Positions 4,688 to 50,121 are shown, counted from the stretch's first letter. The stretch is DNA of 64,000 nucleotides from an uncultured Actinomycetota bacterium (GCA_963834315.1 CAWIAY010000002.1:4730-68729); one strand, 5' to 3'. Translations and numbers: made by a program. Notes: a model not told the origin generated them from the sequence alone.

Positions 4688-7222
4688 TCACCGCGGCGGC
4701 TGCGCCCCCGCCTTCACCCGAGCCAACAGTCGACGGGTGTTGGCGTCGTCGACCGGGCCGTGGAGGAGTCGCACCCGTCGCCACCGTTCCTCGAGCTGTC
4801 CTGCGCTCGGGGTGTCGAGCAGACCGTCGAGGGCGGCCATCAGCTGGTCGAAGTCCTGGCAGACGGGACCGGGGAGGACGCAACCGAGGTCGTAGAAGAG
4901 ATCCGGGACCTCGCCGGTGAGATAGCTCACCACGGGTCGGCCGGTGACCATGAACTCCGTGGCGCGCGACGACCAGTCCGTGAGCATGGCGACGGCGACC
5001 CTGTCGTGCACCACGGTGCTCGGGAACTGTCCGTAGCCCAGACGGATGGACGCGAGCGGCTCCATGAGGTGTGACAACCTGCGCGAGGTGTCGGCCGGGT
5101 CGTCGCGGAAGCCGAGCACCACCGACTCCTGCTCGCACCAGCGGTTGACCCGCCGCGCCTGGTCGTCCGTCAGGGTCCACCCCCGCCCGTGCTCGAAGCT
5201 CGGGACGACCAGGACGAGGCGTCGATGGTCCAGCAAGGCACGCAGCTCACGCTCCTCGGACTGCAGCGCCGGGGGAAGTACGTCGAAGGGGCTCACCACC
5301 AGGTCGTTGCGGGGCGCGCCGGTCGGCCAGACGTCCTCGAACCCCAGCGGGAAGAAGGCGGCTGAGGCGGCCAGTCGGGCCAGTCCGTCCGAGCTCACGA
5401 CGGCGTGGCATCCCGAGGCATCCTCGAGCTCTTCCGTCGTGGCGGCGAGGTCGGCACGTCCGTGCCGGACGAGCGAGGGCGCACCGACGTTGATGAAGCG
5501 GTGGCGCCTCGGTGAGATCGGATACGTGACGCAGGTTCGGGGCTTGTCCGTGACGAAGACGGTCCCGGACCTGACCAGGTGCAGCTGTCCCTCGGAGCTC
5601 CTGAGCGGGTGGACCACGACGTTCGCGCCGTCAAGGAGCACCCGGCGCGTCCTGGTGAGGACGATCTTCTTGATGGAGGGATCCTCGCGCACGGACTCGA
5701 ACACCGCGCGCTGGTCCCCCGACAGGAGGTGGTCTCGGGGGGAGACGGGAAAGGCCCACCAATGGTCGAACTTGGGCGCGTATCGGTCTTCCTCGACCAG
5801 CGCGCGACCGACCAGCGGGGTGGGCTGGTCGACCCGCCCGTCGTCACCGGTGACGAGAGAGAAGCTGCGGTGCAGGCTGTCCGCGGCCGACACCCTGAGC
5901 AGGTTCCGCTCCACCTTGTCCAGGTCCGCCTCGGGGGCGAGGGCAGCGACTCGTTCGCGCCAGTTGACGAGGTCCGGGACGTTGCGGCTGTTCTCCGAGA
6001 GGAAGTTCCGCTTCAGCAGGGGGAAACCGAGGCGAAGGAGGTCGAAGTACTGCGCGGTGTAGAGCGGGTGGAACGGGTACAGCTCGTCGATGAACGTGCT
6101 GAAGTCGAAGCCCCTGCACATCAGGTAGCGACTCAGGCCGATCTCGTACTTGTAGATGACGAGGACCTTCTGCGACTGGGGCGCGACGGCGTCGAACCGT
6201 TTGCGGAAGCCCGGGTCCACAACGACCGGGCGCCGCAGAACCAAGAAGTAGGAGCTGATGTGGAGGTGGTCGAGCTCGCTCATGAAGCGCTCGCCGATCA
6301 TCTCGGCCTTGGCCTGCGCGATCGGCAGGGGTCGTCCCCCGTTGGAGTCGCGCTCGAAGTCGTGCCTGGTCATCTGCAGGCCCCACCAGTCGCACGGCCG
6401 TTGATCCATCTCGTCGAACACGTCCTCGAGGGAGCGGACGAGGAAGCCGCTGTCGTTGGCCAGGATCACCTCGTCGTAACCGTCGAGGACGTCCCAGCCG
6501 ACGAGGTCGCGGGCGAGCGTGGCGTAGGAGCCGAAGTCGTAGGCGCCGTGCGGCAGCGCCCAGGCCTGCCGCGTCACCTCGCGGAGCTTGAGCAGCTCGG
6601 CGGCGTGGATGAACCCGTCGGCGAGGTAGTACACGTCGGCGAAGCGACTGAGCTCGCGGAGGTAGTCGACGACGTAGTCGTCGATCATCCCGTCGGGGTC
6701 GTAGCCGGCGAACAGGCACACCCGTCGTGGCGTGGCCCCGCTCGGGTAACGCGTCGGGGGGCGGGTCTCGTGTCGCGGCGGGACCGGGTCAGCGCTCTCA
6801 CGCCGTCCGAGCACCAGGAAGTGCAGGAGCGGGTTCACCTCGTCCGTGGCGGGATCCAGGTACTCGGACCAGTACCACCACACGTCGAACGCTGTGCTGG
6901 GGTTGCGCAGCAGGCGCCAGCCAACCTCGCAGAAGTGAACGAGAGGATCGAGGTCACCTGCTCGCACGTCCGCGTTGGCGCGGCGGTAGGCACGCGCGTC
7001 GAACAAGTCGCTTCCCCGGATCACCTCGACCGCGCAGCGTGCCGAGAGCTCCTCGCCGAGCCGGTCGTCCTCACCGCCGGACGGGAGTCCGTCGGTGACC
7101 GCTTCGAGGCCGGACTCCAGAAGCTCGTCGACGAGCGCCCGGGCCTTCCCCGGCGCCTTCTGCAGCTGCGCCCACCGCGTGACGAACCGGGACCACCGCA
7201 GGAGGAACTCGGCCTGCCTCAT
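4688..7222 (-). CDS. Multidomain glycopolymer protein: FDxxWY repeat + RgpF (rhamnan synthesis F)-like domain + degenerate TagF-like domain
   Basis: RgpF-like motifs YDFGSY, ILANDS, DWWG, HISSYF, YEIGLS, FPLLKR. TagF-like C-terminus lacks WHG (INVGAP) and the second His (GFRDDP). ATGA overlap with the upstream paralog. Confidence 0.75.
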   Translation of the reverse strand: MRQAEFLLRWSRFVTRWAQLQKAPGKARALVDELLESGLEAVTDGLPSGGEDDRLGEELSARCAVEVIRGSDLFDARAYRRANADVRAGDLDPLVHFCEVGWRLLRNPSTAFDVWWYWSEYLDPATDEVNPLLHFLVLGRRESADPVPPRHETRPPTRYPSGATPRRVCLFAGYDPDGMIDDYVVDYLRELSRFADVYYLADGFIHAAELLKLREVTRQAWALPHGAYDFGSYATLARDLVGWDVLDGYDEVILANDSGFLVRSLEDVFDEMDQRPCDWWGLQMTRHDFERDSNGGRPLPIAQAKAEMIGERFMSELDHLHISSYFLVLRRPVVVDPGFRKRFDAVAPQSQKVLVIYKYEIGLSRYLMCRGFDFSTFIDELYPFHPLYTAQYFDLLRLGFPLLKRNFLSENSRNVPDLVNWRERVAALAPEADLDKVERNLLRVSAADSLHRSFSLVTGDDGRVDQPTPLVGRALVEEDRYAPKFDHWWAFPVSPRDHLLSGDQRAVFESVREDPSIKKIVLTRTRRVLLDGANVVVHPLRSSEGQLHLVRSGTVFVTDKPRTCVTYPISPRRHRFINVGAPSLVRHGRADLAATTEELEDASGCHAVVSSDGLARLAASAAFFPLGFEDVWPTGAPRNDLVVSPFDVLPPALQSEERELRALLDHRRLVLVVPSFEHGRGWTLTDDQARRVNRWCEQESVVLGFRDDPADTSRRLSHLMEPLASIRLGYGQFPSTVVHDRVAVAMLTDWSSRATEFMVTGRPVVSYLTGEVPDLFYDLGCVLPGPVCQDFDQLMAALDGLLDTPSAGQLEERWRRVRLLHGPVDDANTRRLLARVKAGAQPPR

Positions 7223-9774
7223 CCTCGACCCCCCCCGGCGTAGAGCCTCTTCACGCGATCGACCACGCGGACGGCGTTCTGGTCGTCGAGGTGGTCGAAG
7301 AAGATGCGGCGGCGCCCCTCGTACGACGGGGATGGCCCCTGTCGTGTGCCGTCGAACAGCAGGTCCATCGCTCGCGACAGCTGCTCGAAGTCGGCACAGA
7401 CGGGTCCCGGGAGGACGTCCTCGAGCTCGTAGAAGAGCCCGCGCTCGTCGTCGCGGTAGCGGTCGTGGTCGTAGGCAAAGCTCACCACCGGTCGTCCCGT
7501 GACCAGGAAGTCGACCAGACAGCTCGAGTAGTCGCTCACCACCGCGCTCGCAACCCGATAGACGACCTCGACGTCGGGGAACCTGCCGGCGGACAGGTCG
7601 AGGACCCCGAGATCCTCGAGCTGGCGGGTGTAGGCGTGCGCCGTGTCCGCCATGTGCTCACGGACTCCGAGCACGGCGCCGTGCCGGCGCTGCCACTGCG
7701 AGAGCCACTCGAGCTCGCCCTCGGAGAAGGTGTAGTAACCCTCTTCCTGGTCATCGCGGAAGGTGGGGCAGAAGAGCACGAGCTTGCGGTCTCCGACGAG
7801 ATCGCGGAGCTCCGCCAGCTGCCGACGCAAGTCCCCCGGAAGGCGGGACTCGGCCCTCAGGACGAAGTCGAAGCGCGGCAGTCCGGTCACCCACATGTCG
7901 CGGATCGAGAGCGGCGCGAACGCCGCCGCCATCGCGAGACTGTCGACCCGGGAGGAAGCGATGACGGCGCGCGAGCGGGAGTTCTCCAGCAACAGCTGGT
8001 CCCGGACGTCGTCGATGCCGTGCGAGGCGAGACCGAACCGCTTGAGCGGGATGCCGTGCCAGAGGTTGACGATGTTCCGGCGCTCGGGGAGGAGCCGGAA
8101 GCCGACATTGATCCGGGCACCGTGCTTGACGAAGAGCTGACCTGCCCGCAGGAGGTAGTGCTGGCCCTCAGGACTCTCGAGGGGCACGGTCACCACGTTC
8201 TGTCCCTCCAGCTCCACCGCGCGGCTCCGCGTCAGCACGATCTTCTTCACCGACGGGTCATCGGCCACCGCTTCGAAGACGGCTCTCTCGTTCCCCGTGA
8301 GCTGGTGGGTGAAAGCACAGACCGGGAAGGCCCACCAATGGTCGAACTTCGGCGCCCAGCGGTCTTCCTCGACCAGGTCGTCCGGCTCGAGCATCTCGGG
8401 CACCACCGGGCTACCCGCCTCGTCGGCGGTCACGCTGTGGGCCCGCCGCATGACGTCGTCGGCGGAGCTCCGCACGAGGTCCAGCTCGATGCGGCGCAGA
8501 TCAGCGCCCGGAGAGACGGCACGGAGCCGCTCCTTCCAGTCGGCCAGGTCGGGCAGGAGGGCCGGGTTCTCGGCCAACAACCGACGGGACACGAACGGGA
8601 CCCCCTTCGCGACGAGAGCGAACGGATCGGGTCCCAGGAAGGGGTCGTCGCCGACGTGCTCCCCCAGGAAGGTCGCAAGGCAGTGACCACGAGCAGAGAG
8701 CAGTCGCGTCAGGTTGATGCCACGCCACGGATCGGCGAGCGACCGCTGCTCGGTCGCGCACACCTCGAAGAAGCGCCGGACCTCCACGTCCTCCAGCACC
8801 GCACGTCGGAGACCGACGAGGGGCCCGGACCACGAGAAGGCCTCGAGGTCCGTCTCGTCGAGGACGCGGAGCCCCGCGTCGTCGTGGCCGTCCTCGGCGG
8901 TCCCTGCCCCAGAGGTGGCGATCGACCACCAGTCCGAGGGACGGGTGGCCATCTCGGCGAGCAGAGGCTCCAGGTCGTCGACCAGGAAGGCATTGTCCCC
9001 GGCGAGCAGCACCTCGTCGTAGTCCGCGAGCCGCTCCCACCCCACGAGCCGGGCCGCCAGCCGGGCGTGCGAGGTGAGGTGTCCTCCGTCGTGGCGGGTC
9101 GACCAGGCCGCCGACACGTACGGACCGAGCTGCTCCCGCTGTACAGCTCCCATGGAGGAGTCGTCGAGGTAGTACACGTCGGCGTGACGCGAGAGCTCGC
9201 GGACCTGGTCGACCGCAGTGGGGTCCAGCACTCCGTCGCGGTCGTGTCCCGCGAAGAGGCAGGCACGGCGCGGCGAGCTCGGGAGGGTGGTGGCGGGTGC
9301 GGCCCCGGGGTGCGGCAGGGACGGCCGGGTCGCCACTGCCTGCAGGTGTCCGGCCACGACGTAGTGAAGGAATGGGTCGACGTGCTCGCTCCCGGGTCCG
9401 AGGTTCACCCATCGGTACCACCACAGGTCGAAGTCGGCACGAGGACGGCGGAGCTCCCGCCAGCCTCGGCGGCAGAAGTGCTCCAGCGGGCTGCGGCGCA
9501 CCGATGTCCTGGACGGGTCGCGCTCCTCGCCGTAGTCGGACTCGGGCTGGTCGACGATCAGGAGCAGGTCGAGATCCTCGTCGAGCGCGGGACCCTGCCG
9601 GGCGGCGTAGAACTCCGCGTCGAAGTACCCGCTCGCGCGGATCACCTCGATCTCGTCGAACACGCTCAGGACCGGCCAGCGCGCGGGGTCCGGATCGGGG
9701 CTCGAACCGGTGAGCTGCTCGAAGGCCCGGCGTGCCGCCGCGACGTCGGGCGCGGCGACCTGCTCCGCCGTCAC
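7219..9774 (-). CDS. Multidomain glycopolymer protein: FDxxWY repeat + degenerate RgpF-like domain + intact CDP-glycerol glycerophosphotransferase (TagF-like) domain
   Basis: NLWHGIPLK, TGLPRFD, FCPTFR, VREHM and SDYSS are all present. Collinear paralog of 4688..7222, sharing EEDRxAPKFDHWWAFPV. Confidence 0.8.
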   Translation of the reverse strand: MTAEQVAAPDVAAARRAFEQLTGSSPDPDPARWPVLSVFDEIEVIRASGYFDAEFYAARQGPALDEDLDLLLIVDQPESDYGEERDPSRTSVRRSPLEHFCRRGWRELRRPRADFDLWWYRWVNLGPGSEHVDPFLHYVVAGHLQAVATRPSLPHPGAAPATTLPSSPRRACLFAGHDRDGVLDPTAVDQVRELSRHADVYYLDDSSMGAVQREQLGPYVSAAWSTRHDGGHLTSHARLAARLVGWERLADYDEVLLAGDNAFLVDDLEPLLAEMATRPSDWWSIATSGAGTAEDGHDDAGLRVLDETDLEAFSWSGPLVGLRRAVLEDVEVRRFFEVCATEQRSLADPWRGINLTRLLSARGHCLATFLGEHVGDDPFLGPDPFALVAKGVPFVSRRLLAENPALLPDLADWKERLRAVSPGADLRRIELDLVRSSADDVMRRAHSVTADEAGSPVVPEMLEPDDLVEEDRWAPKFDHWWAFPVCAFTHQLTGNERAVFEAVADDPSVKKIVLTRSRAVELEGQNVVTVPLESPEGQHYLLRAGQLFVKHGARINVGFRLLPERRNIVNLWHGIPLKRFGLASHGIDDVRDQLLLENSRSRAVIASSRVDSLAMAAAFAPLSIRDMWVTGLPRFDFVLRAESRLPGDLRRQLAELRDLVGDRKLVLFCPTFRDDQEEGYYTFSEGELEWLSQWQRRHGAVLGVREHMADTAHAYTRQLEDLGVLDLSAGRFPDVEVVYRVASAVVSDYSSCLVDFLVTGRPVVSFAYDHDRYRDDERGLFYELEDVLPGPVCADFEQLSRAMDLLFDGTRQGPSPSYEGRRRIFFDHLDDQNAVRVVDRVKRLYAGGGRG

Positions 9775-10325
9775 GTGCCCGACGTGTCCGCGTCGCGGTC
9801 CGAGCCCTGCTGGAGGAAGTGCAGCAGCGGATTCATGCCGGACCGTCGGACGTCGGGGTGGGCCTCGAGGTACTCGGTGACATCGAACTTGGGACCGGGG
9901 TCACGTCCCTCCTTGTGCCCGTCACGGAGGAAGTGGAGCGCCGGGTCGACCCCGCCTCGGGCGATGTCGAGATTCTGCCGGAGATACCACGCCGGGCGGA
10001 AGTAGCTCGACTGCCGCAGGATCTGGACCTGCTCCCACTCCTGACGACTGATCCGTCCCTGACCTGCTCGGTACCAGGCCCCGCGAGCCCGCTCCCGGGT
10101 CTCCTTGTTGAGGGTGTCGGCCAGCGACTTGGCCAGGATCTCGGACTCCTTCTGGGCCTTCGCCTTCGAGCGACGCAACCGAGCCTGGGTCTCGGCGACC
10201 TCCTCGTAGTCCTGGCGTGCCCGCGCCAGCTCGAGCCGCGTCTGCGCGAGCTCTTCGCGAAGCCGCTCGAGCTCGACTGTTGGGTCGGAGCCATCACGCA
10301 ACGGCCCCTGTGCTGCGGTTCCCAA
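9771..10325 (-). CDS. Hypothetical protein: coiled coil plus stand-alone FDxxWY/HF repeat domain
   Basis: 3' part of the 9771..11438 ORF. TTG start at 10325 after an AGGAG RBS. ELERLREELAQTRLELARARQ coiled coil, then YFRPAWYLRQN..PALHFL..GRDPGPKFDVTEYL..NPLLHFL. GTGA overlap with the next gene. Confidence 0.65.
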   Translation of the reverse strand: MGTAAQGPLRDGSDPTVELERLREELAQTRLELARARQDYEEVAETQARLRRSKAKAQKESEILAKSLADTLNKETRERARGAWYRAGQGRISRQEWEQVQILRQSSYFRPAWYLRQNLDIARGGVDPALHFLRDGHKEGRDPGPKFDVTEYLEAHPDVRRSGMNPLLHFLQQGSDRDADTSGT

Positions 10326-10399
10326 CGAACGTCCTCTCCTCACCGGGGCGGGGTACCGGGCCCGCCGATGACCGCTGACCGTAACACGGGCGTCAGCCC

Positions 10400-11818
10400 T
10401 CAGATGAAGACGTTGAGGAACGATGCCAGCGCCAGCACGGCGAGGGCGCGGGCCAGCACGACCCCCCGGAAGGTCCACCCCGCCAGCGCGATGAAACCGG
10501 CCAGGAATCCATACCCGTAGCGAGGCGGAAGGGCGAAGTAGAGGTTGTTGCCGTAGAGGTTCGCGGCGGTGAGGACCACGGGGCCGACGACGGCCATCAC
10601 AAGCATCCCCCACGCCAGCGCACTTGCCTCCACGTTGCGTCGGAGGGCCACCACGCCGGCGAGCACCGCGAAGCTCAGCACCCCCACCATCAGTCCTTCC
10701 ATCCGCACGTTGACCACGCTCTCCAGGAACGACGCGTTGAAGTTGCCGACGTTGGGCGTGAAGAAGTTGAAGAACAGCTGCGCCTTGATCTGCAGCCACG
10801 GGACGACCGCCGGGGGCATCGCGTCGGCGGCGGCGGCGACCTCGGGTGGCAGCGGGCGCAGCACCCAGGCAAGTGACAGGACCACGAACACCGCGCCCAC
10901 GACTGCTGCGAGGGACAGTCCCCGCAGCCACCCGCGCGCCCGACCCGCCGCGCCGCTCGCGGAGATCGCGCGGATCAGGAGGACGGTCATCGCCACGCCC
11001 ACTGCCGTGATGGCCGTCAGCTTCGTCACTGCGGCGAGAGCCACCACGAGGACGAGCCAGCCCGTGGCACGGCGGCTGCCGTCGTGGGCGGCCGCGGCCA
11101 GCATGACGAGCCCGCCCATGACCGCGGTGGCCGTGTCCGGGCCGACCGTTGCCGCCGACGTGACCGCGTCGCTGGAGGTGCCCACCAGGACGGCCGCAGA
11201 CGCGGCGGCGACCCTGCCCGCGCCGATCCGGCGACCGAGCGCGTAGCCCACGCCCATCAGACCCGCGAGCCACAGGATCCCGACACCGCGGACCAGCGTC
11301 ACCAACGGGATGTCGATGACGTAGGCGATCGGCCGGGTGAGCGCCGCCGTGACGAAGTAGTAGAGCGGCGCGGTGGATCCCGCGGTCGACTTCCCACCGC
11401 CCGGGAACGCGTTCGGATCGAAGCGGTCGCTGCGGCACGGAGGCCAGGGGTACTGAGCCAGACCCTGGTCGAACAGGTCCTCGGGGTAGCCGCGGCAGGC
11501 GGTCATCCTGAGGCTGTCCTGGGACAACGTGTCAACACCCGTGGGAATGTCCGGGAGGATGCGGATGTAGTCGAAGTGGGCATTCTCGTCGATGGGCGAG
11601 AGGTACGGGTACTTGAACATGTGCCAGCCCACGACCGCAGCGGCGACGACGAGGAAGAGGGCGGCGGGGGCCAGGATGCGAACGGGCGGGAGCCACGACG
11701 ACAGGGCCCGACGACGCCCCGAGACGGGGGCTCCTCCGCGCCCGCCGCCTGTCTTCTCCTGCTCACGTGTCTCAGCGATTTCTCTCACTGGCCCTCTCAC
11801 GAACGCTTCACCGACCAC
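10400..11818 (-). CDS. Polytopic membrane protein, probable GT-C-fold glycosyltransferase
   Basis: About 11 hydrophobic segments; acidic SPIDENAHFDY motif in the first extracytoplasmic loop; C-terminal PPRYGY. Confidence 0.55.
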   Translation of the reverse strand: MVGEAFVRGPVREIAETREQEKTGGGRGGAPVSGRRRALSSWLPPVRILAPAALFLVVAAAVVGWHMFKYPYLSPIDENAHFDYIRILPDIPTGVDTLSQDSLRMTACRGYPEDLFDQGLAQYPWPPCRSDRFDPNAFPGGGKSTAGSTAPLYYFVTAALTRPIAYVIDIPLVTLVRGVGILWLAGLMGVGYALGRRIGAGRVAAASAAVLVGTSSDAVTSAATVGPDTATAVMGGLVMLAAAAHDGSRRATGWLVLVVALAAVTKLTAITAVGVAMTVLLIRAISASGAAGRARGWLRGLSLAAVVGAVFVVLSLAWVLRPLPPEVAAAADAMPPAVVPWLQIKAQLFFNFFTPNVGNFNASFLESVVNVRMEGLMVGVLSFAVLAGVVALRRNVEASALAWGMLVMAVVGPVVLTAANLYGNNLYFALPPRYGYGFLAGFIALAGWTFRGVVLARALAVLALASFLNVFI

Positions 11819-11861
11819 GCGATGCTAGTAGGGCGCTGCCCGCGCAGCGCACCCGGTCGCG

Positions 11862-12635
11862 TCACCGGTTGCGTTCGAAGGCGAGCTCGAGGCCGCGCAG
11901 CGTGAGCCAGGGTTGGTGGTCGGTGAAGCTCGTGCACTCCTCGATCACCAGCGGGGCGAGGCCACCGGTCGCGACGACGTGGGCCTCCCCCGGCTGCAGA
12001 GCGAGCTCGGCGAGCATCCGGGCGACGAGGCCGTCGACCTGGCTCGCGAAGCCGTAGAGGATCCCGGACTGCAACGCCTCGACGGTGTTCTTCGCGATGA
12101 CCGACCGAGGTCGGAGCAGCTCGACCTTGCGCAGCTGCGCACCGCGACGACCCAGCGCCTCGAGGGAGATGTCGATGCCGGGCGAGATCGCGCCACCGAC
12201 GTACTCACCCTTCGCGCTGATCACGTCGAAGGTGGTGGCCGTGCCGAAGTCGACGACGATGGTGGGTCCGTCGAAGAGCTGCGCCGCGGCGAGGGCGTTG
12301 ACGATGCGGTCGGCGCCCACCTCGCGAGGGTTGTCCATGAGCACCGGGACACCGGTCCGCACGCCCGGCTCGATGACGACGTGCGGGACGTCGCCGTGGT
12401 AGGTGCGCAGCATCTCGCGCCACTCGTGCAGCACGGCGGGCACGGTGGCGCACACCGCGACGCCCGCGGGGCGCTCCGGAGAGCTCGCGTGTTCGAGCAG
12501 CCCGCGCACCAGAAGACCCCACTCGTCGGCCGTGCGGCGCTCATCGGTGGCAACGCGCCAGTGCTCGAGCACGTCACCCTCGTGGAGAAGCCCCATGGTG
12601 GTGTGGCTGTTGCCGATGTCGGCACAGAGCAGCAT
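11862..12635 (-). CDS. coaX: Type III pantothenate kinase
   Basis: LCADIGNSHT, VGADRIVN, VVDFGTATT, GGAISPG, VVATGG. Confidence 0.95.
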   Translation of the reverse strand: MLLCADIGNSHTTMGLLHEGDVLEHWRVATDERRTADEWGLLVRGLLEHASSPERPAGVAVCATVPAVLHEWREMLRTYHGDVPHVVIEPGVRTGVPVLMDNPREVGADRIVNALAAAQLFDGPTIVVDFGTATTFDVISAKGEYVGGAISPGIDISLEALGRRGAQLRKVELLRPRSVIAKNTVEALQSGILYGFASQVDGLVARMLAELALQPGEAHVVATGGLAPLVIEECTSFTDHQPWLTLRGLELAFERNR

Positions 12636-15180: not shown

Positions 15181-15214
15181 CACGCGAATCTATCGGCTCG
15201 GCCGCACCCGCAGC

Positions 15215-17233
15215 TCACTGTGGTGTGCCGCGGACGCCGGCGTCCCAGGCAGTCGCGGCTCCGGCGCCGTCCAGACGGAGGCAGCGCAGTCCCGCGAACT
15301 TCCGGGTCCGACCCGCGCCGTCGAGCCACGCCCGCAGGGCGGCATCCTCCTCCAGAGCACACATGAGGGCTACATCGAGGTGGTCCAGCGCGGCCACGAT
15401 GGCCTCGGAGGGTGGCAGCGGCGCGTTCCCGGCGACGAACTCTGTCTGGTAGAGCAGCTGCCGGGCGTCCTGATCGCCCGGCTTCGCCTCCGGGCCGGGC
15501 AGGTAGAACCCGCGGGGAACCAGCGGGAAGTGCTCGGTCGTGTGGATCGGGAGCACTTCCATGTGGACGGGTGGGAGCAGCCACGGCCCGGGGCCGACCT
15601 CGGCACGGTCCAGGGCACGCACGTCCGCGAGAGCTCTCTGGTCGACCTTCCAGGTCGGTCGATCGGTCAGCCGCGCCCCCACGTCGTCGGACCACAGCGG
15701 AGTGCCACTGGTCATGACGATCGTGCCGACGGCAACCGCGACCACGACGGGGGCGAGGCGAATCGCCCTGGTCCGCGCAGGCCACCTGACGGTGACCAAC
15801 AACCCCACCAGGACCCAGGTCGGCACGCCCAGCAGCATCCGCCACAGCACCGGTCCCGCACCGGTCAGGGCGTTCGCGAGCTCGAACACGCCCGGGACGA
15901 GCGCGAGGAGGGCGGCCAGGGACGCGAACGCCACCAGTGCCCGTGCACGCCCACGCACCAGGAACGGTCCGACCACCACGGCGACGAGGCTCAACCCGAC
16001 CATGGCCGGCGCGATCCCGGTCATGTAGCCGAAAGCCACGTCGATCGGCAGCGGCTCCGGCGCCGCTCCGGCGACAGGCACCGGGCTGGCCGCGACGACG
16101 GCCCCGGCGATCACCGGGGCCGCTGCCAGCAGCATGGCGCCGGCGAGCAGCAGCCTGTCCCGGAGCACGATCGCGGCGACGACGGCGGGAGCGGCGATCA
16201 TCGGCACCTGGAGCGTGGCTGTCGACGCCAGCCCGACGAAGCAGACCCCGGCCGCAGCGAGGAGGAGCAGGTGCCGGCGGGTTCGCTGCTGAAGGAGCTC
16301 GGTCACGTAGGCCCAGATCAGCGGTGTGAGCATGATGAACGCCAGTGCCTTGCCCTGCCAGAGCCGCCCGAGCGAGTAGGACCCGACGGTGCTCTCGGCG
16401 CTCATCAGCAGGAAGCTGACGGCGACGAGGAACACGAGCAGGGGCGCACGCGAGGCCCACGCGCGACAGAGCCGCCAGGTGGCCCAGGTCATGGCGAACG
16501 CCAGCACGGGCAGGACCACCAGATAGATCAGCGAGCCCGCACTGATGCCGACCAGGTGCGCCAGACCTCCCCACAGGGACTCCACCGACGACAGCGGAAG
16601 TCCTCCGGCGTAGGCGGACGGCAGCTCCTCCGGACCGTAGAGGGTGTCGCGGAGGGAAGGCACGCCGTGCTCGGCCACCCACAAGGACCGGTTGACGAAG
16701 AAGGTGTCGTCGGCGTCCGGCTTCAGCAGGAAGGAGGCGAGACCGGAGACGGCCAGTCCCACGGCGACGGCGACCAGATCGGACCACCACGACACTCGGC
16801 CTGAGATGACTGCCGGCCGGGTGGCGCCCCTACGCCACGACCGTGCGAGCAGCACCACGATCACCGCGATGGATCCCAGGACCACTCCGGGGAGACCGAT
16901 CCTGGACCGCAACCCGAGCAGGACGATGACCGCCAAGACCGCGACCGTGACCTCGACGACGCCGATGGCGCCCTTCGCGGGCTCATCGGGCATCGCGGCG
17001 GAGGAAGGGCGAGGCTCGCGTCGTAGCGCTGTGACGGCACCCCCCAGAACCGCTGCGACAGCGAGGACCGCCCACACGGCCGCTGCGGTCCAGACCTGCC
17101 AGCGCGCCCAGAGGGCGACTTCGTAGAACAGCGTCCAGGCGGCGAAGGAGAGGACGGCTCCGTCCACCCCGCCGTCGACGGCGACGCCGAGCCGGGACCG
17201 AGGATGCGTGGTCTCCCGAGAAACGTCCAGCAT
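15215..17233 (-). CDS. Large polytopic membrane protein, DUF6077-like, probable GT-C glycosyltransferase
   Basis: More than 12 hydrophobic segments; DADDTFFV acidic motif; RLWQGK motif; soluble C-terminal domain; inserted between panD and nadB. Confidence 0.5.
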   Translation of the reverse strand: MLDVSRETTHPRSRLGVAVDGGVDGAVLSFAAWTLFYEVALWARWQVWTAAAVWAVLAVAAVLGGAVTALRREPRPSSAAMPDEPAKGAIGVVEVTVAVLAVIVLLGLRSRIGLPGVVLGSIAVIVVLLARSWRRGATRPAVISGRVSWWSDLVAVAVGLAVSGLASFLLKPDADDTFFVNRSLWVAEHGVPSLRDTLYGPEELPSAYAGGLPLSSVESLWGGLAHLVGISAGSLIYLVVLPVLAFAMTWATWRLCRAWASRAPLLVFLVAVSFLLMSAESTVGSYSLGRLWQGKALAFIMLTPLIWAYVTELLQQRTRRHLLLLAAAGVCFVGLASTATLQVPMIAAPAVVAAIVLRDRLLLAGAMLLAAAPVIAGAVVAASPVPVAGAAPEPLPIDVAFGYMTGIAPAMVGLSLVAVVVGPFLVRGRARALVAFASLAALLALVPGVFELANALTGAGPVLWRMLLGVPTWVLVGLLVTVRWPARTRAIRLAPVVVAVAVGTIVMTSGTPLWSDDVGARLTDRPTWKVDQRALADVRALDRAEVGPGPWLLPPVHMEVLPIHTTEHFPLVPRGFYLPGPEAKPGDQDARQLLYQTEFVAGNAPLPPSEAIVAALDHLDVALMCALEEDAALRAWLDGAGRTRKFAGLRCLRLDGAGAATAWDAGVRGTPQ

Positions 17234-17301
17234 CCGCGCTTGCTCCCCTGATCGTCTGGTCGCGCTGGGCAGGGGGAACGGTACCGGACCGCGGCGAGGA
17301 C

Positions 17302-19505: not shown

Positions 19506-19676
19506 CGCCTTTCGTTCCAGTCCCTCTCGGGTACCGGACGGTGTGCAGATGCACCATCGAGACTAGGCCCAAAGTTTCTCCGGCGGTAACCCGGCGAGTG
19601 GTGTCGTGGGTCACAACACCTCGGTGAAGGGACCGTCCGTACCCTGGGACACGTGTCCAGCCCCACGTCTCTCGGC

Positions 19677-20666: not shown

Positions 20667-20755
20667 GCGAGGTGCCGTCCCCGCATTCCACGGGCCCCGT
20701 CGGGCCGGGTTAGCATGTCGCGCCGCACGAGTGAGTCGACGGGGGTTTCCAGGTC

Positions 20756-23252: not shown

Positions 23253-23256
23253 TCCC

Positions 23257-23676
23257 GTGACGTCACCTCAAGGCTGGTGGAGGTCTCGCCTCGTCGGCTA
23301 CGTGGTCGCCGGGGGCGGGTCGATGCTGCTCGACGTCGTGACGCTCGTTGCGCTGCGGTCGGGACTCGGGGTGCCCCTGGCCGTGGCGACGACGATCGCC
23401 TACGGGGTCGGCCTGGTCAGCAACTTCTGTCTCAACCGGTACGTCGTCTTCTCCAGCTCACAGTCGGTGGCGACCAGCGGGGTCCGCTATCTCACCCTCG
23501 TGTTGCTCAACTACGTGATGACGGTCCTGATCGTCACGGGTGGTGCGACTGCCGGGATCCCCTACCTGGTCGGCAAGGGCATCGCCGTCGCCCTCACGCT
23601 GGTCTGGAACTTCCTGGCCTACCGCCACTGGGTGTTCCCCGACCCAGCAGACGACGAGACGCTCCCTCGACGCTGA
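23257..23676 (+). CDS. GtrA-family flippase-like protein
   Basis: Four TMs; YVVAGG, NFCLNRYVVF, RYLTL, WNFLAYRHWVF. Confidence 0.88.
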   Translation: MTSPQGWWRSRLVGYVVAGGGSMLLDVVTLVALRSGLGVPLAVATTIAYGVGLVSNFCLNRYVVFSSSQSVATSGVRYLTLVLLNYVMTVLIVTGGATAGIPYLVGKGIAVALTLVWNFLAYRHWVFPDPADDETLPRR

Positions 23677-23697
23677 CGTCGCCGCGGGCGGTGAGGA

Positions 23698-25119
23698 TCA
23701 GCCGCGGCGTCGTCGCGCCGCGTGCGCGAGGCGCTGCTCCTCCTCGAAGATCCACCGGGCGTCTGCGGCGGCACGGTGGCGCGCGCGCACCTGGACAGGG
23801 CCCGGCGGGCTGTCGAGGTGCACGTCTGCAAGGCCCAGCCGCCGCTGGAGGGGTCCCTGGCTGAGCCGGACCGACTGCACCCGCCCGTGCCGGACCGCGT
23901 GGGTGCTGCGGGTGAACCAGCCCGAGCGCGCGACGGCGAGCTCCCCGTCGTGCCCGGCACCCATGAAGCGGCGGCTCACGGGATCGAGCCAGCGTGCGCC
24001 TGCCGGCGGCGAGGTGAGGGGGACGGCGGAGATGTCGAGGTCGATGTGGGCGTCGTCGCCACGCAGGAGGTGGGCGGCCAGCGCGAGCACCTCCTCGAGC
24101 GCCGCGGCCGGCATGACCGTGGTGGCCGCCGGCCCGCCGTCGGACTCGCTCACTCCCCCCGAGCCCGCCACCGAGACGTCGAGCTTCGCCCAGCCGAACG
24201 GCCGCCACATCACGGGCTCGCTGACGACCACTCCCTGGACCCTGGCGAGTGCGATGGTCTGGGTCGAGCGCTCGAAGAGCCCGCGCCGCACCTGGAGACC
24301 GGCCCGGGTCTGGCTGACGGTGAAGTCGTAGTAGGCGGAGAGCCTGCGCAACAAGATGATGGCGAAGCCACCGACCACCGGGAGTCCGGGCGCGATCACC
24401 ACGACGTTGCCCAGGGCGCTCACGATGCCCACGACCGCCACCGTGACGACGAGGACGACCGTCTCGGGCGAGAGCAGAGTGCTCAGGACGAGCCTTCGCA
24501 GGTCGAGCCTGGCGATGTCGTGATCTGGCGGGAGCCATGCCGGGGTCTCCTCCTCAGGTGTCCCCGCCGGTTCGTCGGACGCCGTGGCCGCACTGTGCCC
24601 GCGCCGGACGGCGTCGCGCCGCTCGAGGAGCACCTGCCTGACCCGATGCGCCTCCGCGAGCGGCAGGAAGGCCAGCCTGCCCTCGGCGTCACCTCCCGCC
24701 ACATCCATCTTCAGCTCGGCCAGACCCAGGAGGCGGGCCACGAACGGCTGCCGGATGTCCACGCCTTGCAGTCGATCGATCCTGATCCGGCGCGACTGGT
24801 GGTAGACCACGCCGGTGTCGATGCGCAGCTCGCGATCGTCGATCCAGTACCGGGTGCGCAACCACGAGAGGAAGCCGTAGACGGCGCCCGCGACCAGTAC
24901 GGCGAGCATCGCCAGCGCGAACGTGCCGAGCCGCCCGCTCAGCAGGTCGTCCCACGTGGAGACGGCCACCGCGACCACGAGGATGGCGCCACGGACCACC
25001 GGCGTCAGCGGGGAGAGCCGGTGGGAGCCCCGCGCCGCGGAGTCCTCGGCTGCCGCCTCGGGCAGCGGCCGCTCCGGAGGCTCCGGCGCGGGCCAGGAGT
25101 CGAGCGGCGGCTCCGTCAC
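23698..25119 (-). CDS. Bacterial PH-domain membrane protein (YdbT-like)
   Basis: HRLSPLTP, YWIDDRELRIDTGV..RIRIDRLQGVDIRQP, RVQGV, RVQSV.L.QGPLQRRLGLA repeats. Confidence 0.85.
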   Translation of the reverse strand: MTEPPLDSWPAPEPPERPLPEAAAEDSAARGSHRLSPLTPVVRGAILVVAVAVSTWDDLLSGRLGTFALAMLAVLVAGAVYGFLSWLRTRYWIDDRELRIDTGVVYHQSRRIRIDRLQGVDIRQPFVARLLGLAELKMDVAGGDAEGRLAFLPLAEAHRVRQVLLERRDAVRRGHSAATASDEPAGTPEEETPAWLPPDHDIARLDLRRLVLSTLLSPETVVLVVTVAVVGIVSALGNVVVIAPGLPVVGGFAIILLRRLSAYYDFTVSQTRAGLQVRRGLFERSTQTIALARVQGVVVSEPVMWRPFGWAKLDVSVAGSGGVSESDGGPAATTVMPAAALEEVLALAAHLLRGDDAHIDLDISAVPLTSPPAGARWLDPVSRRFMGAGHDGELAVARSGWFTRSTHAVRHGRVQSVRLSQGPLQRRLGLADVHLDSPPGPVQVRARHRAAADARWIFEEEQRLAHAARRRRG

Positions 25120-25619
25120 AGCCCGGCCGCCTGAGCCTCACCGAGCGCCGTGAGTCGGTCGCGGAGCCGGGCGGCCTCGGGGGCCGGCAGGCCGGGGATG
25201 TGGGCTGAGGTGCCCGGAGCCGCGGTGTGCATCTGCACCCGCGCCAGCCCGTAGGCGCGATCGATCGGTCCGGCCTGGACGTCGACGTACTGCATCCGCC
25301 CGTAGGGCACCACCACGAGCCGACGGAACATCGCACCGCGGGTGACGTAGAGCTCCCCGTCGAGCTCGGCATAGCCCCAGCGCCGGGCGTTCCGACCGAT
25401 CAACCACCAGACCCAGCCCCCCACACCGGCCAGCACGACGATCCCCAGAGCAGGCACCCACAGGGGCAGGTCGAGGAACACCTCCAGCACCACCACGACG
25501 AGGGTGAGGACGACAAGGACGGCGCTCAGGACTGCGCGCCGCAGGTGCGCCAACCGGGGGGAGACAGGTTGCCACGAGGTGCCGGGCGGGGCGAAGAGGT
25601 CGTCGTCCGTGCCCGTCAT
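25116..25619 (-). CDS. Bacterial PH-domain membrane protein (YdbS-like)
   Basis: Two TMs then WGYAE..L..TRG...VPYGRMQYVDV.AGPIDR..GLA. Leaderless TACGCT-N7-ATG. Confidence 0.87.
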   Translation of the reverse strand: MTGTDDDLFAPPGTSWQPVSPRLAHLRRAVLSAVLVVLTLVVVVLEVFLDLPLWVPALGIVVLAGVGGWVWWLIGRNARRWGYAELDGELYVTRGAMFRRLVVVPYGRMQYVDVQAGPIDRAYGLARVQMHTAAPGTSAHIPGLPAPEAARLRDRLTALGEAQAAGL

Positions 25620-25649
25620 GGCTCAGAGCGTACGTGCAAGGATGACGCG

Positions 25650-26333
25650 GTGAGCGCACCGCGGGGAGACGGGTCGGCCGGCCACGACCTGCCTGGCCAC
25701 CTCTTCATCGTCACCTACGGCCGTTCCGGCTCGACGCTGCTCCTGGGCGTCCTCAACTCCATCGACGGATACCTGATCCGCGGCGAGAACGACGGTGCGG
25801 CCTACCGGTTGCACCAGTTCCACACCGACACCGTCAATCGCAAGCGTCGGCTGCGCAAGCGATTCGAGATCCCGCTCGACACGACCAACCCGCACTTCGG
25901 CCTCGACGACTTCCCGGCGGCGGTCTCCCTGCGGATGCTGCGACGACTCGTCACCACGACGTTGTTGCGACCCGAGCCCGACACCAGGGTGACGGGCTTC
26001 AAGGAGATCCGGTGGTACCAGGACGACCTTCCGGCGTATGTCGACTTCCTGCGCGAGCTGTTCCCGGGCGCCCGGTTCGTGATCAACACGCGCGACCACG
26101 CGGCGGTTCTCGCGAGCGGCTGGTGGCCCGAGAAGCCGCTCGACGGACGCCTGGAGCGGATGGAGCAGGCGATTCTCGACCTCGCCGACTCCCTCGGTGA
26201 GGCGGCCTACCGCGTGCACTTCGACGACTACACTGCCGACCCAACGGCCCTCCGAGGCCTCTATGAGTGGCTCGGGGAGGACTTCGACGAAGCCCGGGTG
26301 CGCGCGGTGCTGGGTGTCCGTCATTCTGTCTGA
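25650..26333 (+). CDS. Sulfotransferase-family protein
   Basis: FIVTYGRSGSTLL (5'-PSB-like P-loop), GFKEIRW, FVINTRD, YRVHFDD. GTG start after an AAGGA RBS. Confidence 0.75.
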   Translation: MSAPRGDGSAGHDLPGHLFIVTYGRSGSTLLLGVLNSIDGYLIRGENDGAAYRLHQFHTDTVNRKRRLRKRFEIPLDTTNPHFGLDDFPAAVSLRMLRRLVTTTLLRPEPDTRVTGFKEIRWYQDDLPAYVDFLRELFPGARFVINTRDHAAVLASGWWPEKPLDGRLERMEQAILDLADSLGEAAYRVHFDDYTADPTALRGLYEWLGEDFDEARVRAVLGVRHSV

Positions 26334-26384
26334 GGAACTGGAAACGTCGGGTCCACACCCTGGACCCCCGCACCGAGGAGACCT

Positions 26385-27215
26385 GTGAGCACCACCCTGT
26401 CGATCACCCTGGTGATCGCGGTCGCCTTCTTGCTGTTGCTGAGCGTGCAGGTCGTGATCCTCCTCTACGTGCGCAGTGCGCTCACCGACGCCGAGCTCGG
26501 CGAGCCCGTCGACGAGGAGCCGCAGCCCCATCGCCGCACCGAGACCGCGGGCCTGGTGGGCCGCCTCCGCCGCAGCGGGGTCGAGCAGCACTCGCGCAGC
26601 GTGCGAGAGCTGGAGGCGCTGATCGACCTGCGCGCGCTGGTGCCTGCGCGCACGACCATGCCGTCCACCCAGGGGTGGGCTGCCAGCCCCGTGACGATCA
26701 GCTCGTTGGTGCGCGAGGTCCTGGAGACCAGCCCCGCCCTCGTCGTCGAGGCGGGCAGCGGCGGGTCCTCGGTGTGGGTCGGCTACTGCCTCGAGCGTCT
26801 CGGCCGGGGACGGTGCATCTCGCTCGACCACGACGAGGAGTACGCCGCCAAGACCCGCGCGGACATCGAGCGGCACGGGCTCACGGCGTACGTCGACGTC
26901 GTTCACTGCCCTCTCGTGGAGGTCGAGCTCGCCGGCGAGACGTTCCGCTGGTACGACCTGAGCAAGGTCGAGGGTCTCCACGGCATCGAGGTCGTCTTCG
27001 TCGACGGTCCTCCCGGCACCACCGGACCGTTGGCGCGCTACCCCGCGCTTCCGGTGCTGCAGCCCTACTGCGCCCCCGGCGCCAGATTCATCCTCGACGA
27101 CGCCGCGCGGCCCGATGAGCGAGCCATCGTGCACCGCTGGACGCGCGAGCACGGCGCCCGGACGATCGACCGCACCCCGGGTCCGCTGGGTTGCGTGACG
27201 GTCCAGGTCGACTGA
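26385..27215 (+). CDS. Class I SAM methyltransferase (Methyltransf_24-like) with N-terminal membrane anchor
   Basis: N-terminal TM; VVEAGSGGSS, SLDHD, VFVDGPPG, FILDDAARPDE. Confidence 0.82.
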   Translation: MSTTLSITLVIAVAFLLLLSVQVVILLYVRSALTDAELGEPVDEEPQPHRRTETAGLVGRLRRSGVEQHSRSVRELEALIDLRALVPARTTMPSTQGWAASPVTISSLVREVLETSPALVVEAGSGGSSVWVGYCLERLGRGRCISLDHDEEYAAKTRADIERHGLTAYVDVVHCPLVEVELAGETFRWYDLSKVEGLHGIEVVFVDGPPGTTGPLARYPALPVLQPYCAPGARFILDDAARPDERAIVHRWTREHGARTIDRTPGPLGCVTVQVD

Positions 27216-27359
27216 GAGGGGGCTGGTCCATGAGCGCCCAATGGTTGGCCACTGCAAGGGATTTCGACCCCAACGGGGGTGGATGGCTAGACTTTCGGGC
27301 TGTCGTACACCCGTCAGTCCCGACTAGGCACACGGGCGGTTCACCCGCCGGGTACTCAG

Positions 27360-30300
27360 ATGGTTGCTGGTAGTCAGCCCCGGCCAGGTCCCGAGGGGCC
27401 GTCGGCGGTTCGGACGTCCGCGCGCCGGCTCGCCGATCGGTTCCTGGCCAGGCGCAACCCCGAGGCACCCGACGACGCCGCTCCCGACTCGGGCGACCCG
27501 CGACCCACGCGCATCGACCGTCTGCTCGAGTCGGGCCTCTTCGACGTCGAGTTCTACACCGCCACGGCCGGCAGGGAGTTCGAGTCCGAGCGGCACGCGG
27601 CGCGCCACTGCATCAACGTCGGCATGCCCCAGGGGCACTCGCCCAACCCGCTGCTCGACATCTACTCCGTGCCACGCACGGTGCGCACCGCCTGGCGGCG
27701 GGGCCAGATCGGCAAGGTCGTCGACCACCTCGAGTCCGAGGGGGGCTGGGGCGCCTCCTCCGGACCCCTCTTCTACCCCCCGGCCCTCACCCACCCCCTC
27801 ATCGGGCAACATCACGGCGGCTCGGCGATCGCGCAGTTCCTGACTCGCGCGGACGCGGACACCCTGTTGCCCGTTCCTCCCGGCTACTGGGGCCCCGCGC
27901 CCACCTTGGCGCAGACGCGGGCGACGCTCATCGCCCATGCGCGCGCAGCCTCCGGCTCCCTGCACGACGACGACATGCCACGAGCCGCCGGCCACGACGC
28001 GGCGATCGCGACCCTCGGCGCGGAGCTGGAGGGGCATCACCTCGCCCCTTCGGTCTCGCCACGGGTCTCGCTCGTGTGCGGGCCGCCCTCCTCCCCCCGT
28101 GAGTTCATCGAGATGATCGACCGACTCCGGGGGCAGACCATGACCAGCTGGGAGCTGCTCATCCCCTCCGGGGACTGGGACCCCGAGCTGAACCGCGTGG
28201 TCGACGTCGCCTCGACGCGGGACCCGCGCATCAGGGTCGTCGAGAGCTGCCCCGGTGCCGACAGCGAGGGCGCCTGCGCATCGCTGTGGACGGCACTGGG
28301 CGAGTTCGTCGGCTTCGTGACCCCGGGCACGGCCTGGGACGGCGACTACCTGCGTGCCATGTCCTCGGCTCTCCACGCGCGTGGGCTGCTGGCCGCCCAG
28401 GGCTGGCTGGTCAAACGGGACGACGAGGACGGCAACGAGGTGCTGCACTCCTTCGGCGAGGCGCACGATGTGCTGGTGCACTCGCGCGAGGTCAGCCTCG
28501 GCGCGGCCATGGTCCGCCGCGACGCCCTCGTCGGCGACCACCTGCACCACGTGTGCCAGGCCACGCGCACGGAGGCGGCGGGGCTGCAGTTCCTGCTGGA
28601 GGTCTCCCATGACACCCGGTGGCCGCTGCTCCCCCTGGTGGCCGGGCACGTCGTCGACACGCTCGTCGGAACCGCACCACCGGCGGGTGCGCGCGCGGCA
28701 GCCGACGTGGTCCAGGAGCATCTGCTGGCCTGCCAGGGCAGCCGTCGACGACCCCGAGAGCGGGTGCCAGGACGCATCTCCATCGTGGTGCCGACCTCCG
28801 ACGAGTTCAGGATGACGATCGCGGCGGTGTCCGCCACCCTCCGCACCACGAGCACCGACGACATCGAGGTGGTGATCGTCGACAACGGCTCCAAGGCGGA
28901 GGTGGGCGCTCGCCTCGTGGCGGCGTTCCTCACCGAGCCTCGGGTGCGCTACCACCGCGTCGCCCGCAACGTGAACTTCGCCCTGGGCTGCAACATCGGG
29001 TTCGCCGAGTCGAGCGGCGAGTTCGTGGTGTTCCTCAACAACGACACCATCCCGCGCGGCGACTGGCTGGGGGCGATGCTTCCGGGCCTGGAGGACCCGT
29101 CGGTCCGTGGGGTCCAGCCCCTGCTGCTCTATCCCGATGACAGCATCCAGAGCGCCGGCCTCTACTTCCCGGCGAAGGACACCCTCCCGTGCCACTTCCT
29201 GGTGGGTCACCCGCCCGAGGACGCACACCGCGCCGGGGAGCGCCGGTTCTACGCCGCGTCCGGGGCAGCCCTGCTGCTGCGTGCGGCCGAGTTCGAGGCC
29301 CTGGGAGGCTTCGACGTCGAGTTCGTCAACGGGATGGAGGACGTCGACCTCTGCCTGCGCGCGAGGGAGCTCTTCGGAGGTGCCTTCGCGGTGGTGCCGG
29401 AGGCGCGGGTCACCCATCTCGAGGGCAAGACGCCCGTGCGCCCCGAGGTCGTCCTCGCGAACCGCGCGTCCTTCATGCGGCGGTGGCGATCGCGGCTCCC
29501 CGTTCCCGACACCGACCGGTTGAGCGACATCGGCTTCCGGCTCGCGCACATCGGCGCCGACGACGTCGCCATCCCGGTGCCGCGTCCGGTGCTCACCCGC
29601 GAGGTCGGAGGGAGCCTGGTCGGCTCTCCGCAGCGGTTGAGGTGGGGGATCAAGCTGCCCTCGATCCCAGGCCCCTCCGGAGACCACTGGGGCGACACGC
29701 ATCTGGCTCGCTCCCTCGCGGCCGCGCTGCGCGAGCTCGACCAGGACGTCGTCACCTACCGCCGCGGCACCCACCAGTCCAACGCGTCGTACCTCGACGA
29801 CGTGGTGCTCGGCATCCGCGGGCTCGAGAGGATCCACCCCCAGGCCGGCAAGATCAACGTGCTCTGGGTGATCAGTCACCCCGATGACGTCACCGTCGAC
29901 GAGCTGCACTCCTTCGACCTGGTGTTCGCAGCCTCCGAGTCGTGGAGCCGGCAGATGACCGCGCGCTCCGGACGGCGAGTGCAGGTGCTTCGGCAAGCGG
30001 TCGACGCTCGTCAGCTGCCCTCTGCCGACGCGCCGACCGGCGACGGCTCGCGGCCCGTGTTCGTCGGCGGCAAGTACGGCGACCGGCGGCGTCAGGTCGT
30101 CTTCGACGCCATGCAGGCCGGCATCGACTTCGAGGTGCACGGTCCGGGATGGGAGGGGCTGATCCCGGCACCCGTCCTGCGCAGCAGCTACGTGCCCAAC
30201 CACGAGGTCACTGCGGTCTACAGGTCGCGCGGTCTCGTCCTCGCCGACCACTGGGACGACATGGCACGTGAAGGCTTCATCGCCAACCGGATCTTCGACG

Positions 30301-46929: not shown

Positions 46930-47009
46930 TCGAGCTCCCTTTCGTGGACCCTCATGAACTGCCACGGCAGCCTATCGAGTCGCCTCGCGGGGACCGCAGC
47001 CCCGTCGCC

Positions 47010-50054: not shown

Positions 50055-50067
50055 CCTGACAGCAGCA

Positions 50068-50098
50068 GACGCCCGGGAGCCCTCAGGTCCCGGGCGTC
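50068..50098 (-). terminator. Probable intrinsic terminator after the osmoprotectant ABC operon
   Basis: Perfect 11-bp stem GACGCCCGGGA / TCCCGGGCGTC with a 9-nt loop, 24 bp past the stop at 50122. Confidence 0.7.
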
Positions 50099-50121
50099 CG
50101 CCCATGTCGTGCCTCGCGCGC

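Follow-up and report, generated by a model that had tools for sequence, protein, structure and literature searches.

What does a repeat shared by four proteins, one of them without a catalytic domain, contribute to a locus that builds cell-wall glycopolymers? The question is raised by a 64,000-nucleotide stretch of DNA from an uncultured Actinomycetota bacterium (GCA_963834315.1, CAWIAY010000002.1:4730-68729), which was analysed at its full length and is called the window here, with positions counted from its first letter. Three adjacent minus-strand genes encode p3 (9771..10325), p2 (7219..9774) and p1 (4688..7222), and a fourth gene, on the plus strand, encodes p4 (27360..30539). Here we report that the repeat common to these proteins has no catalytic role and accompanies cytoplasmic enzymes of surface-glycan synthesis as an accessory module, and that it belongs to a family that appears to be undescribed, and without a structure, despite its size. 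p3 is best read as an oligomerising adaptor or scaffold.

A 38-residue repeat in four window proteins

A sequence-only reading of the window had placed an unnamed motif at the N termini of p1, p2 and p4 and in the C terminus of p3. To this we applied a hidden Markov model (HMM) of 38 positions, built from 1,031 distinct repeats of 150 outside proteins and containing no window sequence, which was run against all six-frame open reading frames (ORFs) of the window. The same four proteins came out on top (p3, E = 1.8e-27; p1, 1e-22; p2, 1.4e-6; p4, 4.8e-4). The fifth-best ORF reached only E = 0.16, so there is no fifth carrier within the 64 kilobases (kb). A chance motif is ruled out by these E-values together with conservation in orthologues.

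The repeat unit spans 38 residues with the consensus LFDxxWYLxxNPDVAxxGxNPLxHYLxxGxxEGRxPxP, in which six signature positions (F2, Y7, P21, H24, G29 and P36) are conserved at 90% or more. In p3, the C-terminal pair occupies 9801..10001 (minus strand; copies at nucleotides 9891-10001 and 9801-9887, domain E = 1.2e-14 and 2.3e-11). In p1, the N-terminal pair covers residues 73-148 (6779..7006, minus strand; copies at nucleotides 6896-7006 and 6779-6889, domain E = 1.8e-12 and 3.2e-9), and the 38-residue register is exact for the two tandem copies in both proteins. The p2 region (9346..9627, minus strand) comprises a first copy that is interrupted by an insert of about 26 residues (nucleotides 9574-9627 and 9442-9495) and a second at nucleotides 9346-9432, with domain E-values of 8.3, 4.1e-4 and 9.3e-3. 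All six signature residues are present in the first copies of p1 and p3 and in the split first copy of p2; the second copies deviate at Thr21 in p1, Ala36 in p3, and Ser21 and Arg36 in p2. p4 holds a single degenerate repeat at residues 60-97 (27537..27650, plus strand), followed by a vestige. It matches the HMM over its full length (positions 1-38) and keeps L1, F2, D3, the aromatic residue at position 6, Y7, H24, G29, G33, P36 and P38, without NPDV, NPL or P21. The segment is kept in three orthologues, from Nocardioides iriomotensis and two metagenome-assembled genomes (MAGs), where it is the top match of each locus (E = 2e-5 to 8e-5), and by this sequence evidence the p4 copy is weak but real.

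p3 shows the module apart from any enzyme. AlphaFold 2 (AF2) predicts its 184 residues as one long helix followed by the two repeats, with a mean predicted local distance difference test score (pLDDT) of 85.6, and neither a catalytic domain nor a significant Pfam or NCBIfam match was found in it. The gene starts with TTG at 10325, with AGGAGAGGA in front, has high GC content at third positions and overlaps the p2 gene by GTGA. Residues 15-87 (10065..10283, minus strand) are predicted to form a single coiled-coil-like helix (pLDDT 94-97). Its best heptad register is rich in Leu, Ala and Val at positions a and d, and a crude heptad filter flags residues 16-70; the helix measures 55-73 residues, or about 8-11 nm. 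Ahead of it stand only about 14 poorly conserved residues predicted at low confidence. Most of the 33 p3 orthologues are about 170-196 residues long, and they keep an invariant W-Y, P, H, R-D-P-x-P, F, Y, P, H pattern; among the close ones the helix region is free of insertions and deletions. The motif is, as had been proposed, a discrete non-catalytic module common to enzymes and to a carrier that has no catalytic domain.

The enzymes downstream of p3, p1 (844 residues) and p2 (851 residues), are tandem paralogues, 40% identical, whose genes overlap by ATGA, and in each the N-terminal repeats precede an RgpF-like and a TagF-like domain. The RgpF family (PF05045, gathering cut-off of 25 bits) matches p1 at 72.5 bits (E = 3.6e-20) and p2 below the cut-off, at 18.1 bits, consistent with a decayed domain. 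Conversely, Glyphos_transf matches p2 at 151.9 bits (E = 3.1e-44) over profile positions 24-365 of 367, which indicates an intact TagF-like domain, and p1 at 34 bits over positions 270-358 only, the C-terminal quarter. The WHGxPLK motif is present in p2 (WHGIPLK; NLWHGIPLKRFG) and missing both from p1 (VGAPSLVRHG) and from the p1 orthologues at loci L085, L001 and L002. Two catalytically important histidines have been reported for TagF-like polymerases (PMC5974469); we assume that WHGxPLK holds one of them. This complementary decay, in which p1 has the strong RgpF domain and no WHGxPLK, and p2 has WHGxPLK and a sub-cut-off RgpF domain, fits two proteins working together, and the sequences suggest that p1 and p2 are an obligate pair with one live domain each. 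Single-enzyme loci carry the p1-like form. In p4 (1,059 residues), Pfam recognises a GT2 and a GT-B-like Glyco_trans_1_2 domain behind the degenerate N-terminal repeat.

None of p1 to p4 has a transmembrane segment, indicating a cytoplasmic site of action for the module in all four. For the window proteins, an extracellular cell-wall-binding repeat is ruled out by this lack of transmembrane segments (signal peptides were not separately checked) and by the fusion to enzyme domains that probably use cytoplasmic nucleotide-activated donors.

The repeat family and its enzyme partners

The sequence-only reading had suggested a family-wide profile search with a listing of co-occurring domains and a structure prediction, and analyses of this kind were carried out. 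A double-repeat profile was searched against 1.84 billion representative proteins (clusters at 50% identity), giving 28,827 matches at E ≤ 1e-3, 19,920 at E ≤ 1e-10 and 5,558 at E ≤ 1e-30. The family therefore numbers at least 28,827 clusters in many bacterial phyla. Carriers are found in Alpha-, Beta-, Gamma- and Deltaproteobacteria as well as Acidobacteriota, Cyanobacteria, Verrucomicrobiota, Planctomycetota, Myxococcota, Leptospiraceae and Actinomycetota, with 1 to 28 copies per protein. The repeats of p3 are 45-57% identical to proteobacterial ones.

Carriers are annotated generically in their source records (hypothetical protein, glycosyltransferase, class I S-adenosylmethionine-dependent methyltransferase). 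The domains found with the repeat in 52 repeat-rich proteins are GT2 and Glyco_trans_1_4 (14 each), RgpF (6), WsaF and Methyltransf_24 (3 each), together with WbsX, GT61, GT92 and Sulfotransfer_3. Partners are thus mostly glycosyltransferases, methyltransferases and sulfotransferases, and the families that travel with the repeat all build or decorate glycans. Names assigned by the Prokaryotic Genome Annotation Pipeline on plasmids agree with this association.

AF2 modelling of the p3 repeat pair alone (pLDDT 91.5) predicts for each unit roughly three short helices plus an extended linker. In our reading of the external HMM, the conserved positions are mostly helix caps, core residues or turns; a structural role of these positions would leave the surface free for variation. 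No model in Pfam-A (2025 copy) or NCBIfam 20.0 lies over the repeat in the four proteins, in a four-repeat consensus or in nearly repeat-only proteins, in line with the original description of the motif as unnamed. Library matches to Arm, ComX and Triabin were judged to be noise. PDB sequences held no match to the repeat, Foldseek returned no similar solved fold, and text searches of the literature for the motif, DUF7669 and Nocardioides glycopolymers found nothing relevant.

Two uncharacterised families come closest. The repeat consensus and three of the 52 repeat-rich proteins give weak, partial matches to DUF7669 (PF24706) at model positions 27-59 of 75. The scores of 20.3 bits (protein P0049) and 16.1 bits (consensus) both fall below the 23-bit cut-off and cover the profile only in part; no window protein matches at E ≤ 1, and no paper on the family was found. 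DUF4214 (PF13946) is an uncharacterised repeated accessory domain found on glycosyltransferases and methyltransferases and on secreted proteins of the RTX/hemolysin type. The present repeat has the same unusual double distribution, on glycan enzymes and RTX proteins. It is nevertheless a separate model, which matches none of the window proteins and which occurs in one of the 52 proteins alongside the repeat rather than coinciding with it. An exception to the glycan-enzyme setting of the repeat is a Rhodospirillum rubrum plasmid (NZ_CP077804, 39805-42297 and 47293-48681; locus L169), which encodes two RTX-type proteins whose N termini consist of three to four copies of a 42-residue variant of the repeat. 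Their annotations are hemolysin-type calcium-binding and M10 C-terminal domain, and rfbC and genes for type I secretion and an ABC transporter are close by.

Split and fused architectures and a possible docking role

Within the Nocardioidaceae, the pairing of p3 with the enzymes is conserved. In five of five contexts examined (the window; Nocardioides panacis, L001; a soil MAG, L002/L003; L085; and L086), the p3 orthologue stands directly before a repeat-bearing RgpF/TagF-like gene, often overlapping it. The earlier observation that 9771..10325 is coupled to the enzyme pair by GTGA holds, and operon coupling is kept in all five. L085 repeats the whole window order of membrane protein, p3, p2-like protein, p1-like protein, methyltransferase and lysS. 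No carrier lies within 10 kb of coaX in the other Nocardioidaceae loci (L005-L010, L042, L056 and L058), which indicates that the insert between coaX and lysS is lineage-specific. A scan of a genome collection with p3 alone returned one distant locus.

Domain anatomy in distant bacteria suggests what the repeats may do. An E. coli IncHI1B plasmid from a poultry isolate (NZ_CP073978, 84435-89596; L168) carries a repeat-bearing gene pair beside a polysaccharide-export/ABC-transporter cluster. Its first gene encodes 912 residues comprising a class I methyltransferase, about 520 heptad-rich residues and exactly two C-terminal repeats; the second, 3 nucleotides downstream, encodes 806 residues with one N-terminal repeat and two GT2 modules. 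Comparable pairs are found in a Xanthobacteraceae MAG (L157: methyltransferase, coiled coil and five repeats, followed by three repeats and WbsX), an alphaproteobacterium (L136: an N-terminal region with no Pfam match, a 190-residue coiled coil and three repeats, followed by nine repeats and two GT2 modules) and Desulfohalobiaceae (L145/L146: a coiled-coil-rich protein with seven repeats and no Pfam match in its N-terminal region, followed by two repeats, GT2 and GT4). The same modules also occur fused in single proteins, as methyltransferase, coiled coil, repeats and either two GT2 modules (P0095) or GT1 (P0154). P0137 and P0117 join a sulfotransferase or Methyltransf_24 domain to a coiled coil and C-terminal repeats. 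The point at which the single-chain proteins divide into separate ones lies exactly at the repeats, and both partners carry them there; an interface is the simplest reading. The crude heptad filter finds coiled-coil-like stretches of 42 residues or more in 80 of the 150 repeat-rich proteins, compared with 5 of 34 control window proteins; for 28 of those 80, no more than 60 residues separate the end of the stretch from the first repeat. The repeat is matched by twelve E. coli plasmid records in all.

We propose a mechanism in which the long helix of p3 would form a coiled-coil oligomer and so display two or three copies of the C-terminal repeat pair. By docking onto the repeats at the N termini of p2 and p1, and possibly onto the lone copy of p4, these pairs would give one heteromeric machine at the membrane, in which the putative glycosyltransferase p1 and the putative polyol- or sugar-phosphate transferase p2 could cooperate. 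The polytopic membrane protein encoded upstream (10400-11818) may take part. On present sequence evidence we give such a p3-scaffolded, repeat-docked machine of p1 and p2, perhaps with p4, slightly less than an even chance of being correct, and the docking or scaffold reading gains indirect but real support from the gene and domain anatomy seen in unrelated bacteria. That the repeat joins enzymes from separate loci, as had also been proposed, is not supported: this part of the claim leans on the one degenerate copy in p4, and the other glycopolymer enzymes of the window are free of repeats.

The closest characterised precedents come from ABC-transporter-dependent O-antigen synthesis, in which the polymerase is either fused to a coiled-coil protein or recruited by its membrane-proximal end (PMC11231755). 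In WbdD, this end recruits the polymerase WbdA, and the terminating enzyme of the characterised rulers sits at the opposite end of the coiled coil; across the systems studied (WbdD/WbdA, WbbB, Klebsiella O4 and O7), glycan-assembly complexes form between modules that are split variously among polypeptides (PMC11231755). The window resembles WbdD/WbdA of E. coli O9a (Klebsiella O3), WbbB and Klebsiella O4/O7 in that a coiled-coil protein would be encoded beside a multi-module polymerase. In those systems the polymerase is recruited by the end away from the terminating enzyme, and the repeat pairs of L168, L157, L136 and L145 copy this arrangement of modules. By this analogy, p3 is best read as the counterpart of that end of a WbdD-type coiled-coil protein which lies near the membrane and recruits the polymerase, minus the terminating enzyme. 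The differences are that p3 has no such enzyme and a much shorter helix, that the window enzymes are actinobacterial and RgpF/TagF-like, and that no Wzm/Wzt is seen in the window.

A second precedent is provided by the TPR domains of TagF-like capsule polymerases (Cps1B, Cps7D and relatives), which mediate oligomerisation without being required for catalysis and for which contacts with further components of the machinery have been suggested (PMC5974469). They too are non-catalytic helical repeats at the N or C terminus of multi-domain TagF-like polymerases. The window repeat differs in its 38-residue period, its roughly three short helices per unit and its presence on a separate, enzyme-free protein; it has no Pfam match to TPR or Sel1 and no Foldseek match to any TPR structure. 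Both elements are already known in kind, as a non-catalytic helical repeat on glycan polymerases and as a coiled-coil organiser. An enzyme-free protein with a putative coiled coil and docking plug would be a novel form among the known organisers. It is also conceivable, although we regard it as rather doubtful, that the repeat is the general plug-and-socket of bacterial coiled-coil glycan assembly machines. Repeat arrays would then be continuous in proteins that fuse terminator, coiled coil and polymerase, and cut in split ones, the halves would re-associate by repeat-on-repeat stacking and so recruit the polymerase, and p3 would be a stripped-down adaptor of coiled coil and plug only.

Several observations weigh against docking. 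Only a single carrier is present in 57 of 80 loci, and about half of the assessable proteins with C-terminal repeats have no repeat-bearing neighbour (L096, L101 and L123 are examples). Adjacent genes that share a domain are also expected if each protein needs the same targeting module, and arrays of up to 28 copies exceed what a docking site needs. The RTX-type carriers beside a type I secretion gene suggest a function in which no cytoplasmic partner is required. The coiled coil of p3 is itself a prediction, based on a single AF2 helix and on a crude heptad filter whose background is 15%. Finally, no Wzm/Wzt- or TagG-type (ABC-2) exporter was found among the roughly 55 window ORFs scanned, the sole ABC system there being a betaine importer of the OpuA type; an exporter may be encoded beyond the ends of the window.

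In an alternative reading, the repeats of each carrier would independently hold it against the membrane's inner face or an undecaprenyl-phosphate-linked acceptor, a role like that of the C-terminal amphipathic helix of WbdD. Co-occurrence in a cluster would then reflect shared location rather than mutual binding. Soluble carriers such as p1 to p4, which have no transmembrane segment, must act at the membrane; the repeats of the coiled-coil proteins sit at the end that is membrane-proximal in WbdD; enzymes of many chemistries carry the module, so its ligand should be generic; and 57 of the 80 loci hold one carrier. The conserved aromatic, His and Arg positions would also suit interfacial binding. 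The p3 repeat pair is, however, approximately charge-neutral and has no amphipathic or hydrophobic stretch (maximum 19-residue hydropathy, 0.09), the most conserved residues look structural, and arrays of 10 to 28 copies are atypical for membrane anchors. Membrane targeting also leaves the break-point pattern of fused and split proteins unexplained, and we consider it unlikely. A module that binds glycan, holding the growing polymer for processivity and, in the secreted RTX variants, holding the protein on cell-surface glycan, would explain why the repeat occurs almost exclusively with enzymes that build or modify glycans, and multi-copy arrays would provide avidity for a repetitive ligand. 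The gene neighbourhood of the R. rubrum RTX-type proteins, with rfbC, type I secretion and ABC transporter genes, fits this idea, and for a different terminator protein there is a prediction of a carbohydrate-binding-like domain (PMC11231755). Yet the repeat is highly conserved across phyla, whereas the polymers made by RgpF, TagF-like, WbsX, GT2 and WsaF enzymes are chemically very different, and the enzyme-free p3 would gain no obvious benefit from binding polymer. Small all-helical repeats are, moreover, unusual carbohydrate binders. In our estimate, glycan binding is quite improbable.

The remaining explanations concern p3 and the arrays more narrowly. The sequence-only reading had offered a chain-length ruler, by analogy to WbdD, as an alternative to a scaffold for p3; the helix of such a ruler would set polymer length by fixing the distance of a terminating enzyme from the polymerase. 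The helix length is conserved and free of insertions and deletions among close orthologues, coiled-coil-plus-repeat proteins of other phyla bear a methyltransferase or sulfotransferase at the far end, and coiled coils are a marker of this termination strategy (PMC11231755). A class I methyltransferase gene (3685..4632, minus strand; Methyltransf_23, E = 1.2e-7) closes the p3-p2-p1 row, is found in the same place in L085 and is a candidate polymer-modifying or chain-terminating enzyme. It carries no repeat by the external HMM, however, and is not flagged by the coiled-coil filter. p3 itself has only the short variable segment at the far end of its helix, where a ruler would hold a terminator domain, and its 55-73 residues compare with about 520 in the E. 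coli plasmid protein; the missing Wzm/Wzt-type transporter counts against a ruler as well. The ruler role is for these reasons not supported, and we rate it as very unlikely. Least credible is an inert spacer, in which the repeats are a stiff stalk that separates domains and binds nothing. Copy numbers that range from 1 to 28 between related proteins and conserved positions that are mostly structural are in keeping with a stalk, but p1 to p4 and both E. coli plasmid proteins have their one or two copies at a free terminus, where there is nothing to separate, and a stand-alone protein that ends in repeats would be unexplained; we see hardly any chance for it.

Genomic setting and significance

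The window has a G+C content of about 70%. Its CoaX is 79% identical to CoaX of a Nocardioidaceae MAG and Nocardioides panacis carries a p3 orthologue, indicating that the source is a member of the Nocardioidaceae. The repeat genes lie in a conserved housekeeping block (ftsH, folE, folP, folB and folK; panC, panD, nadB, nadC and coaX; lysS and lsr2) that is interrupted by numerous cell-wall glycopolymer genes. The inserted set includes five TagF-like proteins, several GT2/GT1 enzymes, rmlA, a UDP-sugar dehydrogenase, methyltransferases, a sulfotransferase and large membrane proteins of unknown family. The gene directly upstream of p3 (10400..11818, minus strand) encodes a 472-residue polytopic membrane protein that has seven or more transmembrane-like segments and for which no Pfam match at E = 0.001 or better was found. 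Its position is conserved in L085, and it is a possible membrane partner.

Three more large TagF-like fusions are encoded at 39862-42765 (TagF+GT1), 43450-46965 (GT2+TagF) and 47010-50105 (GT2+TagF). A 1,230-residue protein (33786-37478, plus strand) has GT2 at residues 732-964 as its only recognised domain, its first roughly 730 residues being without family assignment. The external HMM finds no repeat in the three fusions or in this protein. Between the gene for the 1,230-residue protein and the sulfotransferase gene stands a NuoD-like gene (37489-38733, plus strand; Complex1_49kDa, E = 1.5e-71), on its own and far from any further respiratory-complex gene of the window. A 219-residue protein (54719-55378, minus strand) has a coiled-coil-like stretch of about 100 residues (78-174), weak matches to membrane-protein families at residues 10-76 and no significant family match. 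Between nadB and panD, 15215-17233 (minus strand) encodes a large DUF6077 membrane protein with about 14 transmembrane-like segments; L085 has a gene for a 676-residue protein without a Pfam match at this position.

The repeat is conserved, readily detected and placed at the junction of coiled coil and polymerase. Should it turn out to be an interface, its family of at least 28,827 clusters at 50% identity, for which neither a structure nor a model was found, would be a large one to model in Pfam or InterPro. Membership of glycan-assembly complexes would then be predictable from sequence, and glycoconjugate production would gain a means of redesigning the length of chains or the make-up of polymers. 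The E. coli plasmid system provides a genetically tractable test bed for the function of the repeat. In the case of a general plug and socket, the repeat would serve as a sequence marker for such machines and their binding partners in any genome.

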